From a virus: 11,419 bases of DNA. Shown here piece by piece: positions 4,011 through 6,577 of the stretch. The stretch lies in the IMG/VR virus record IMGVR_UViG_3300037340_000065; one strand, given 5' to 3'. Below the pieces are notes generated by a model that worked only from the letters and a program-made list of their open reading frames with translations, did not search any database and was not told the DNA's origin. The translations under genes were made by a program, and so were the position numbers. The number at the start of each line of letters is the position of its first letter. Position 1 is the stretch's first letter.

Positions 4011-4044
4011 AAAAAAAGGGAGCCGCCTGAAAGGTGCGGCTCCC
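4011..4044 (-). terminator. rho-independent terminator for minus-strand transcription
   Basis: Minus-strand read: GGGAGCCGC, acctttcag, GCGGCTCCC, TTTTTTT. That is a 9-bp GC-rich stem, a 9-nt loop and a 7-U tail. It begins 22 nt after the TAA of the MVP-like gene. Confidence 0.8.
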
Positions 4045-4065
4045 CTCTAGTGCTGTGCCGAAGGC

Positions 4066-6519
4066 TTACTGTCCAGCCTTCGCGGGCTTGGATTGCAGGT
4101 TGGAGAGGATCGTCGCAAACGGCGTGTTTGCGAAGACCTTTTCCAGCGTGGTGCCGAGACCAGCCTGCTCGTGAAGAGCCAGCGGGGCGATGGCGGTGGA
4201 CAGCTTCGTCGCGAACTCGGTCTGACCGAGGGTGTTCATCGCGGCGATGAGGTCCGGGGTGACGGCTTCCATGCGGTCGGCGAAAAACTGCACGCGCTGC
4301 TGTTCCAGCGAAACCGTGTAGTCTTCCTCGCCCTTGCGCCGGGTGAGCGCCGATGCGGCGATGGTGTCGAGTTGATCCTGCTCGTTCACGCGGGCGGTTA
4401 TCTTGGCAACCGTCAGCGCGATCTCTTCCGTCAGGCGAGCCATGGTCTGCTCGGCTTCGGCTTGTTCCAACTCGGCGGTGAGTTCCAGCCTCTTCGTCGC
4501 GAGAGTGTGGTCGAGGTCGATAACCTGAGATTGAATCTCGGTGCTGCGCTTCTTTGCTTCAAGGGCGGCTTCTTCGCCGGATAGATTGATTGCGGTCGTG
4601 ACTGCGGTCTGCTGCGCTGCACGGAGCAGGTTGGCGATCTTGTCGTCGCTGATGGTCGCGCCCAGCACTTCGACGTCGTAGACGTCCATGCCGTTCTGCG
4701 CGAACGTGAAGTGACGGACTTCGTTTTCGACCTTGACGCCGAGGACGGTGTCGCGGACGATGGCGGTGGAGTTCTCGATAAATTCCTTCACACCGAGCTT
4801 CTTCACTGCGCCCTTCAGGCGGCTGCGCATGTGGTCGCACAGGTACTTGACGTAGTTCTCGACGGAGAACCAGACGTCCCTGTGCTCGCGCAGGAAGTTG
4901 ACGCGGTAGCTCAGCTTGATGTCCACGTTGACGAGGTCTTTCGTCTCGGCACGGACGACATCGCTGACGATGTTGTTGTCCACACGCAGATACACGGCGC
5001 GGAGCAGGGCGTCGGTCGTCTTCGGCTTCCCGGTGGAAAGCTCAAGGACGGCGAGGGACTCGTCGTATTCGAGCAGGATCGTAGCGGGTCCGACAACGAC
5101 GCGGCGGTTGCCAGTCTTGTCGACGACCTGCACGGCGTAGCCCACGAAGGGGCTGATCGTCGGCACGCCGTCGAACTTGGTGTTCAGCGTGATGGACGGG
5201 GGAGGCGTGAACTGCGTCCCGCGAGTGATCTTGTCGCCTTCGAAGGACTCCAGCGCCGCCGATGCGCCGAGGGCCTTGCTGCTCTTGAGGTTGCGGTTGA
5301 AGCCACGGTCGGTTCCGACGTTCGCGCTGCGCACGAGGGCGTCGGCGACGTAGTTGTCGTCGCTCTCGCCGAGGAGTTCGCGCAGGTTCGCGTTGTAGTC
5401 GATGGCTTCTTGGTTGCCGGGGTACCAGAGCGCGACGGTCTTCGTGTCCAGCACGCGGCGCACGATGACCTCGTTGCGCGGGTCCGGTAGGAAGATTTGC
5501 GGCCCCTTCTTGGTCTTGACGTCGCCGATGTCCTTCACGAGGAGGTAGCGTCCCTCGCCCTTCGGGATGGCGATGCCGTAGTAGCGCTCGCGGTCGAAGC
5601 CGCCCTGCTTGGGGTCCTTGTAGGTGATCAGACCGTGCTCGGCGCGGGGGTAGTAGATGCGCTGGTCTTTCCCTGTGATGAAGAGTTCCTCGCCAGCGGT
5701 GCGCTTGGTGGTGCCGTCATCTTCCGTGTAGTCGGCGATGACCTTGATGTACAGGCCCATCTGGTCGTTCAGGTCCAGTGCCTTGAACTTGTTGACTTCC
5801 TTCTCCCGCTCCCGCTTGGTCATGAACTTCTCGGTCGCCTCGGGGAACACGACCTTGGGACCGCGCTCGAAGCGCTTCTCGCCGGACTCGGCGAGCAGGA
5901 TGCAGTATTCGAGGCGCTCAAGCGTAAGTGCTTCGCGCACATAGTTGTTGTTCTCAGCGAGGACTTCGAACCCGGTCGCCGGAATGAAGAAAGGGACTTC
6001 GGTGCCCTTGATCACGAAAAGCTGGCCGTTGACAAGAGTCTTGCTTTCCTTAGCGCCCACCGTGCCAGCAGCCTTGGTCGCCTGCTCGCCGTTGTAGACG
6101 CGGACGACGAGGTACTGGTTGGAGCGGAGGTGGTGACCGGAGATCGCCTTGGCGAACTGCCCCGGCCAGAGCGGGAACGTGGTCGGTCCGGCAATATTTA
6201 TTTTTCTTCCGAGTTGAAGGTTCGGAGTGTCAGACTTGCCGACCTTAGGTGCCGACAGGACGTTTTGGTTGTCGAACGCCGGGTTCTCCAGCACGATGTA
6301 GTGCCCCTCGGGGACGAGGGAGAACTGCTTGATCGCCAGCCTGAGGTCGCTCTGGCTCACGAACTCATCCTTCGTGCTGTCGTATGTCACGGGCTTGTCG
6401 TTGCTGGAAAGGGCAAGGGCGAACGGTCCGACGTAGACCTGAACGCTTCCCTTGGTCGCGTCCTGAACGAACGCGTACTGGTTCTGTGCAAGTACCAACT
6501 GTCCTGTCGTGTCTGGCAT
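4066..6519 (-). CDS. major vault protein (MVP) homologue, 817 aa. It has MVP repeat domains, a shoulder region and a cap-helix coiled-coil.
   Basis: Motif-level matches to eukaryotic MVP. YAFVQDATKGSVQVYVGP matches YIHVLDQNSNVSRVEVGP. VPEGHYIVLENP matches VPPRHYCIVANP. FPLWPGQ matches FPLYPGE. YAVQVVDKTGNRRVVVGPATILLEYDESLAVLELSTGKPK matches [42 protein letters not shown]. An Ala/Glu/Gln-rich coiled-coil spans aa ~640-760, like the MVP cap helix. ATG at 6519 with a strong SD (tcGAGGAGAgttATG). Confidence 0.8.
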   Translation of the reverse strand: MPDTTGQLVLAQNQYAFVQDATKGSVQVYVGPFALALSSNDKPVTYDSTKDEFVSQSDLRLAIKQFSLVPEGHYIVLENPAFDNQNVLSAPKVGKSDTPNLQLGRKINIAGPTTFPLWPGQFAKAISGHHLRSNQYLVVRVYNGEQATKAAGTVGAKESKTLVNGQLFVIKGTEVPFFIPATGFEVLAENNNYVREALTLERLEYCILLAESGEKRFERGPKVVFPEATEKFMTKREREKEVNKFKALDLNDQMGLYIKVIADYTEDDGTTKRTAGEELFITGKDQRIYYPRAEHGLITYKDPKQGGFDRERYYGIAIPKGEGRYLLVKDIGDVKTKKGPQIFLPDPRNEVIVRRVLDTKTVALWYPGNQEAIDYNANLRELLGESDDNYVADALVRSANVGTDRGFNRNLKSSKALGASAALESFEGDKITRGTQFTPPPSITLNTKFDGVPTISPFVGYAVQVVDKTGNRRVVVGPATILLEYDESLAVLELSTGKPKTTDALLRAVYLRVDNNIVSDVVRAETKDLVNVDIKLSYRVNFLREHRDVWFSVENYVKYLCDHMRSRLKGAVKKLGVKEFIENSTAIVRDTVLGVKVENEVRHFTFAQNGMDVYDVEVLGATISDDKIANLLRAAQQTAVTTAINLSGEEAALEAKKRSTEIQSQVIDLDHTLATKRLELTAELEQAEAEQTMARLTEEIALTVAKITARVNEQDQLDTIAASALTRRKGEEDYTVSLEQQRVQFFADRMEAVTPDLIAAMNTLGQTEFATKLSTAIAPLALHEQAGLGTTLEKVFANTPFATILSNLQSKPAKAGQ

Positions 6520-6577
6520 AACTCTCCTCGAAATAACTTCTATCTAATACTTAACACCGTGGGATAAACTTCGCAAC
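6520..6577 (-). promoter_or_regulatory. AT-rich 58-nt leader upstream of the MVP-like gene; probable promoter/operator region
   Basis: This is the only sizeable AT-rich intergenic gap in the window. Minus strand: gTTGCGAagtttatcccacggtgtTAAGTAttagatagaagttatttcGAGGAGAgttATG. A possible -35 TTGCGA, 17 nt, then a weak -10. Direct repeats GAAGTTTAT and GAAGTTATT lie 24 nt apart. Confidence 0.3.

Follow-up and report, generated by a model that had tools for sequence, protein, structure and literature searches.

Leader and terminator-like signals suggest a separate expression unit for a major-vault-protein-like gene in a phage-type gene array

Introduction

In phage T7, gene 10, which codes for the major capsid protein, is preceded by the promoter phi10 and followed by the terminator T-phi, and the genes 11 and 12 are reached by read-through. 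The attenuator of the rplJL-rpoBC region in Escherichia coli likewise forms a unit of promoter, abundant gene and leaky terminator. In this study, the signals around a gene that codes for a major vault protein (MVP) homologue were analyzed in a stretch of viral DNA of 11,419 nt (IMG/VR record IMGVR_UViG_3300037340_000065), which is called the window in the following. This gene (4066..6519) starts with an ATG at position 6519, ends with a TAA at 4066–4068 and encodes 817 amino acids. It is located on the minus strand, which holds all credible genes of the 11.4-kb window and also the signals described below.

Viral vault-protein homologues are already known. They were described in two gut Caudoviricetes, in a study that contains no analysis of expression signals (bioRxiv 10.1101/2023.11.10.566534), and a "vault protein" was predicted for Borg elements (PMC12660748). 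Bacterial homologues have already been reported in gliding bacteria. The regulatory layout found here is ordinary, too, and could be taken from a textbook. New are the association, across the family, between a vault-protein homologue and a terminator right behind it, and the extent of this family on very large phage-type contigs. On the signals found, we lean slightly towards a model in which the vault-protein gene forms an expression unit of its own inside a co-directional, translationally coupled array of a large phage-type genome.

Results and Discussion

Terminator-Like Hairpin Downstream of the Vault-Protein Gene

The hairpin (4018..4044) starts 21 nt past the stop codon of the vault-protein gene, in the 68-nt gap (3998–4065) that follows it. 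Its arms GGGAGCCGC (4036–4044) and GCGGCUCCC (4018–4026) form a perfect 9-bp stem, in which 8 of 9 pairs are G-C, around a 9-nt loop. A T7 tract (U7 in the transcript; 4011–4017) lies immediately 3′ of the stem. The sequence-only reading, an earlier description of the locus made from its letters, had proposed an intrinsic terminator with a 9-bp GC stem and U7 at this place; both elements were recovered, and only the distance to the stop, given there as 22 nt, had to be corrected. The calculated energy of the hairpin is -18.7 kcal/mol, or -22.9 kcal/mol with the flanking A-U and G-U pairs, four of which can lengthen the stem into the flanks, and the 71-nt terminator region has a z-score of -2.9 against shuffles.

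A standard terminator scan missed the hairpin, because its loop of 9 nt is beyond the limit of 8 used there. Scanned with loops of up to 10 nt, it scored 26 and is the only strong site on the coding strand, as the two others reached at most 14. Typical loops have 3–8 nt and those of the relatives 3–9 nt; in the window, RNAfold closes one extra pair inside the loop. The most efficient terminators have shorter loops, which is a point against the model.

The position after the vault-protein stop was compared with the stops of other long open reading frames (ORFs) on the same strand of the same loci. A hairpin was counted within 120 nt downstream of a stop if its stem had 5–15 pairs, at least half of them G-C, and if it had a loop of 3–10 nt and a T-rich tail. 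Among relatives with at least 70% identity to the protein of the window, such a structure follows the vault-protein stop in 14 of 14 non-redundant loci, but only 10 of 287 other stops (3.5%). The respective numbers are 6 of 15 versus 12 of 146 (8%) at 50–70% identity and 54 of 158 versus 71 of 1665 (4.3%) below 50%. Several loci of the intermediate class which failed the T-run rule keep a strong hairpin at the same place. The enrichment spans the family, bacterial copies included. Even in the 735-kb phage LR756501, which has a GC content of 32%, the sequence AAAAACTGGGAGAGAAATCTCCCAGTTTTTT is found about 25 nt past the vault-protein stop. The terminator after the vault-protein gene is kept from this phage to soil phages with 60% GC and to bacterial chromosomes.

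The stems differ between the loci and always pair. When 19 distinct hairpins were folded singly, all of them gave uninterrupted stems of 7–13 pairs with a conserved GGGG/CCCC base, whereas the inner positions show four to six pair types, full compensatory exchanges included. RNAalifold found no consensus in a MAFFT alignment of the hairpins, because a sequence alignment sets such variable stems out of register; it was replaced by the folds of the individual sequences, with positions counted from the stem base. As different stems pair at the same place throughout, the hairpin together with the T-run is a selected element. By this conservation and covariation, hairpin and U-tract are under selection as a structure, as is characteristic of an intrinsic terminator.

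The window holds 17 short inverted repeats, which are a frequent feature, and the hairpin could in principle have come to lie beside a gene with an AT-rich gap by chance. The same position in all 14 close relatives, the covarying stems and an excess of 8- to 30-fold compared to the ends of other ORFs, however, effectively refute a chance co-occurrence. The hairpin could also be mainly an element of mRNA processing or stabilization, which blocks 3′-to-5′ exonucleases after cleavage and does not stop the polymerase. This would suit the few relatives in which a strong hairpin is kept without a clear T-run (L040, L185), as well as the fact that the downstream genes must be co-transcribed. Most hairpins, however, are directly followed by 4–8 T and often preceded by A-runs, as is characteristic of factor-independent terminators, and the enrichment was measured with the T-run required, so that a pure stabilizer appears improbable.

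Some further observations were made at the end of the gene. Around one third of the bacterial copies (L090–L169, GTDB genomes) are also followed by a terminator-like hairpin. In a 65%-identical relative (L236, 2600–2760), tRNA-like sequences are present on the opposite strand beyond the vault-protein terminator. Within the last 85 nt of the coding sequence in the window, there is an imperfect 25-nt inverted repeat (4096–4150; 76% complementary, 5 nt apart). In addition, a perfect 8-bp hairpin (4059–4082) with the arms CGAAGGCU and AGCCUUCG and an 8-nt loop spans the stop codon. A like pairing occurs in the four or five nearest relatives, but its 5′ arm is coding (conserved KAG residues), which makes the meaning of this hairpin doubtful.

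Read-Through into the Downstream Genes

The Shine-Dalgarno sequence AGGAGA of the next gene (4002–4007) begins 3 nt after the T-run and is followed by an ATG at 3995–3997. This distance leaves no room for a promoter, hence the downstream genes need read-through. The tight order of T-run, AGGAG-type site and start codon was found in the window and in the loci L001, L002, L004, L008, L012/L020 and L039, in agreement with the sequence-only reading, which had placed the next Shine-Dalgarno site straight after the U-tract and had made the downstream genes dependent on read-through. From this layout, termination at the hairpin would be partial and not complete. An essentially complete terminator, with a promoter of their own for the downstream genes, might be expected from the strong stem, its G+C-rich base and the perfect U7. 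It is very improbable, though, as the T-run is followed by the Shine-Dalgarno site after only 3 nt and by the ATG after 14 nt, a junction that is kept tight in the relatives. The promoter scan reported no site there either, and a promoter located inside the vault-protein gene would still face the hairpin.

The first gene behind the terminator is a hydrophobic ORF of 27 amino acids (3914..3997), whose stop overlaps with the next start (GTGA). It is followed by an ORF of 74 amino acids for a small membrane protein (3693..3917), which is reached only by read-through, and by a gene for an RlaP-type nucleotidyltransferase (2884..3726), a conserved downstream neighbour. The small hydrophobic gene is thus split in the window (27 and 74 amino acids); in L001 (10600–11180) its first part has 120 amino acids, in L008 there is one gene of 78 amino acids, and in some relatives, L002 among them, the nucleotidyltransferase gene directly follows the terminator. 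Compared to L001, the ORF of 74 amino acids is 100% identical in amino acids and about 98% in DNA, whereas the flanking genes reach only 83–88%. A match of this ORF to the N-terminus of the nicotinamide mononucleotide transporter PnuC is weak and below threshold (E = 0.021). That the stretch from the terminator to the nucleotidyltransferase gene might hold a non-coding RNA was considered and rejected, as the very highly conserved region 3693–3917 reads as the membrane-protein ORF; searches of the window against Rfam (E up to 1) and for tRNAs gave no matches. The end of the nucleotidyltransferase gene is overlapped by an ORF of 92 amino acids (2622–2900), which matches the HNH endonuclease family (PF01844, 2.9e-5).

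Leader and Promoter-Like Block

Nearly all junctions of the window overlap or are 1 nt apart in a gene map that combines ORFs and Shine-Dalgarno sites with the conservation seen by tblastn in syntenic loci. The 58-nt gap before the vault-protein gene (6520–6577) has a GC content of 38% and is the sole AT-rich gap, while the other gaps without a terminator, of 37 nt (10485–10521) and 31 nt (8011–8041), have 57 and 55% GC, respectively. An apparent gap of 162 nt (1752–1913) is taken up by an ORF of 49 amino acids. The description of an AT-rich gap unique in an otherwise tightly coupled array, given in the sequence-only reading, is borne out by this gene map. Furthermore, a non-overlapping gap of 33–71 nt precedes the vault-protein gene in all close relatives.

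Directly after the TAA stop (6578–6580) of the upstream gene g14 (6578..6817; 79 amino acids, without a family match), a -35-like hexamer TTGCGA (6571–6576) is located, which matches TTGACA in four of six positions. It is followed after 17 nt by the -10-like hexamer TAAGTA (6548–6553), which is extended by a TG one base 5′ (TGtTAAGTA, 6548–6556). Next comes the block TTAGATAG (6540–6547). It ends with TAG, which does not vary among 11 aligned relatives, and takes the position where a transcription start would presumably fall. The strong Shine-Dalgarno sequence GAGGAGA, as described before, was found at 6523–6529, 3 nt before the ATG. The leader as a whole (6520–6577) is predicted to be unstructured (z = +1.2).

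In the alignment of the leaders from 11 relatives, the elements TTGC, a spacer of about 17 nt, GTGnTA, 8 nt and TAG are kept, and the rest is unalignable. A matrix derived from this conserved block gives 33–41 bits before the vault-protein gene, and no other place in any of the loci of 10–18 kb exceeds 8 bits. In distant relatives, near-consensus sites occur at the same leader position, such as TTGACT-17-TATACT in L037 and, found by eye, TTGCAA-17-TATAAG in L030, and the sigma-70 test is modestly enriched in their leaders (36 matches vs. 21.8 ± 5.1 in shuffles). These findings speak in favour of the block being a promoter, and we consider it slightly more probable than not that it serves a sigma factor of the host or the phage.

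Several results weigh against this. TAAGTA agrees with TATAAT in only two of six positions and lacks the T at position 6; it does not pass as a sigma-70 -10 hexamer. A consensus promoter scan of the window did not list TTGCGA-17-TAAGTA. In a test for 9 of 12 sigma-70 positions, none of 15 close-clade leaders passed, a result not above that of shuffled leaders. Promoter prediction on the leader, which the sequence-only reading had proposed as a check, thus failed with the standard sigma-70 consensus. The promoter-like hexamers named there do exist, but they are weak; what can be kept of a dedicated promoter is the conserved block TTGC/GTGnTA/TAG, unique in each locus, with a -10 part that is poor by sigma-70 standards. 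Moreover, a matrix scan of the window and six relatives of 10–18 kb found no second copy of the block, and it can for this reason not be called a recurrent phage promoter motif.

These results would be accounted for if there was a terminator but no dedicated promoter. The vault-protein gene would then be transcribed only within the upstream polycistronic RNA, the gap would be an open region for ribosome loading and the block a regulator site or a signal at the RNA level, and the differential output would come from the terminator, the protection of the mRNA 3′ end and strong translation alone. Read-in from upstream also fits, as it is expected where an upstream terminator is missing. In contrast, the conserved positions fit the pattern of -35, 17-nt spacer and TGn-TA exactly, near-consensus promoters stand at the same place in distant relatives, and the block has no RNA structure. 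We regard transcription without a promoter of its own as rather unlikely, and a promoter in the leader is kept as the preferred reading.

The gene had also been called an "insulated" cassette, which holds for its 3′ end only. Upstream of the leader, there is no terminator and the -35-like hexamer abuts the g14 stop, and read-through from the upstream genes into the vault-protein gene is consequently expected. In the loci L171 and L004, a terminator-like hairpin is present before the leader as well.

Expression Level and Proposed Mode of Expression

The codon usage of the vault-protein gene is strongly biased, with an effective number of codons (Nc) of 34.6, while the other genes taken together have 44.7 and the G+C content at third codon positions predicts 42.6. 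C-ending codons and AAG are strongly preferred. Together with the strong Shine-Dalgarno sequence, the unstructured leader and the conserved terminator, this is indirect evidence for a high expression of the vault-like protein. As a counterpoint, the bias is as strong in g6 (9147–9878; 243 amino acids, Nc 33.5) and g8 (8042–8659; 205 amino acids, Nc 35.8), both without a family match, which may be highly expressed, too.

The sequence elements, their conservation and the covariation of the hairpin were observed directly, and the following mode of expression is proposed on this basis. Transcription would enter from the upstream genes, since no terminator holds it back, and would probably be joined by an additional start at the leader promoter (TTGCGA, 17 nt, TGnTAAGTA), close to the TAG at about 6540–6542. 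The resulting leader of about 22–25 nt would be short, unstructured and equipped with a strong Shine-Dalgarno sequence. At 21 nt past the stop, the G+C-rich hairpin with U7 would act as a factor-independent terminator, which ends most transcripts and also shields their 3′ ends. A minority of polymerases would read through into the ORFs for small membrane proteins and on to the nucleotidyltransferase gene. On balance, the mRNA and protein of the vault-protein gene would exceed those of both sets of neighbours. Promoter activity, partial termination and a high protein yield are inferred from these signals.

Vault-Protein Gene Product

The product of 817 amino acids is a full-length homologue of the major vault protein. 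In Pfam, it matches MVP_shoulder (PF11978) with 6.7e-25, covering profile positions 2–116 of 118, and Vault_3 (PF17795; N-terminal vault repeats) at 4e-11; PF01505 remained under the cut-off (0.0086). By sequence, rat, human and rabbit vault chains were found in the PDB (E about 1e-17), with residues 460–724 colinear with 465–733. No family for the vault-like protein was found in PHROGs.

An AlphaFold2 model has a mean predicted local distance difference test (pLDDT) value of 62.5. Residues 1–130, the shoulder (SPFH-like) domain (pLDDT about 85–90) and an unbroken helix of about 125 residues behind it (626–751; pLDDT about 80) are modelled with confidence, and the residues 175–250 and 386–505 with low confidence. 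The domain order is N-terminal beta repeats, shoulder domain and long helix. Searched with Foldseek, the model has its best matches in full-length vault cage chains (E = 4e-21), and crystal structures of the repeats R1–R7 of murine MVP were also found (E = 6e-10).

Relatives and Genomic Setting

More than 6000 vault-protein homologues were found at E ≤ 1e-10. Nine syntenic loci of 73–88% identity, whose contigs measure between 17 kb and 894 kb, came from six context look-ups. About 225 further loci were obtained by alignment-based scans; their sources are metagenomes, viral contigs of IMG/VR with lengths of up to 470 kb, and bacterial genomes. A scan of IMG/VR with the single protein had given no relatives. 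Bacterial copies, which are about 42–46% identical, were seen in genomes of cultured Nannocystis and in numerous metagenome-assembled genomes. The bacteria concerned include Nannocystis, Polyangiales, Cytophagales, Saccharibacteria and other bacteria of the candidate phyla radiation, Riflebacteria and Vulcanimicrobiota. Of the phages with deposited genomes, only three have a homologue, with 42% identity; they are huge (462–735 kb) and uncultured. When all of the window was compared by megablast with cultured and deposited phage genomes, no match was obtained.

In the common gene order, many small ORFs without assigned function are followed by the vault-protein gene, sometimes a small membrane ORF, the RlaP nucleotidyltransferase, a protein of 400 amino acids (phrog_10079), a HisRS-like fragment and an HNH nuclease. 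Homologues of the protein of 400 amino acids were found in cultured phages of Burkholderia, Bordetella and Pseudomonas. The source element is most likely a large phage. Around the vault-protein gene of the window, small ORFs of this kind, the nucleotidyltransferase, the HNH nuclease and the HisRS-like fragment are encoded, and this neighbourhood is not a virion module. The analogy to phage structural genes, which the sequence-only reading had drawn, is a loose likeness in layout and does not extend to the neighbouring genes.

The closest relatives with a long context, L002 and L003, lie on the contigs Ga0374055_0000025 (894 kb) and Ga0326728_10000058 (436 kb), which consist of small ORFs, densely packed, co-directional and nearly all without a family match. 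Should each contig be a single phage genome, the two would rank with the largest known; the 894-kb contig is possibly a concatenated assembly. Two short contigs which carry only the vault gene, L235 (2678 nt) and L236 (2891 nt), were considered as assembled transcripts and remained unused, since their ends do not clearly match the predicted start and terminator.

The best sigma-70-type match of the window was found elsewhere, at 8017–8045 in the 31-nt gap before g9 (TTGACA-17-TACAGT, 10 of 12 positions). The end of its spacer, ACGGTGT, resembles that of the vault-protein leader. The ATG at 8010 stands 6 nt past the end of the -10 element and lacks a Shine-Dalgarno sequence, so that the g9 transcript is possibly leaderless.

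Comparison with Known Systems

The layout is an indirect clue to the vault-like protein, and it suggests the native boundaries of the expression unit for cloning, about 6577 to 4011. The conserved terminator and the codon bias suggest that more of the vault protein is required than of the neighbouring gene products, as would be the case for the subunit of a shell or cage. Tentatively, and with more doubt than confidence, it may be proposed that large soil and peat phages as well as many bacteria keep the vault homologue as a boosted, terminated unit in order to make stoichiometric, shell-forming amounts of it. If this is true, infected cells would fill with phage-encoded vault-like particles, a protein compartment distinct from capsids and from the phage nucleus, and in the association with a terminator (34–100% vs. 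a background of about 4%), prokaryotic and viral vaults would have their first regulatory signature.

Compared to described intrinsic terminators, the hairpin shares the perfect, G+C-rich stem with a G-C base, the immediate U7, an A-rich 5′ flank able to pair with the U-tract, the position shortly after a stop codon and the covariation of the stem, whose 9 bp are within the range of about 5–14 bp for this class. It differs by the loop of 9 nt instead of the usual 3–8.

With the unit of phi10, gene 10 and T-phi in T7 and with rplJL-rpoBC, the locus shares a nearby promoter that would boost one gene, a terminator passed only by read-through and a graded expression within one array. Unlike these, its product is neither a virion nor a ribosomal protein and its gene is not part of a structural module; we infer the promoter and the partial termination, and the leader motif is unlike a T7-type promoter.

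Eukaryotic MVP (PDB 4v60, 9bw5) is of similar length, with about 860–890 amino acids versus 817, and has the same order of repeats, shoulder and long helix. The identity over structural alignments is only 16–18%, however, and the middle repeats are of low confidence. Unlike in eukaryotic vaults, neither a vault RNA nor the partners TEP1 and PARP4 were seen near the gene. The closest cellular relatives are bacterial, with about 43% identity to the copies of Nannocystis, Polyangiales, Cytophagales and Saccharibacteria. Like the viral and bacterial homologues reported before, the copy of the window belongs to the same family and, in a phage-type genome, lies outside the structural module, but it is part of a clade from soil or peat, with contigs of up to 436–894 kb.

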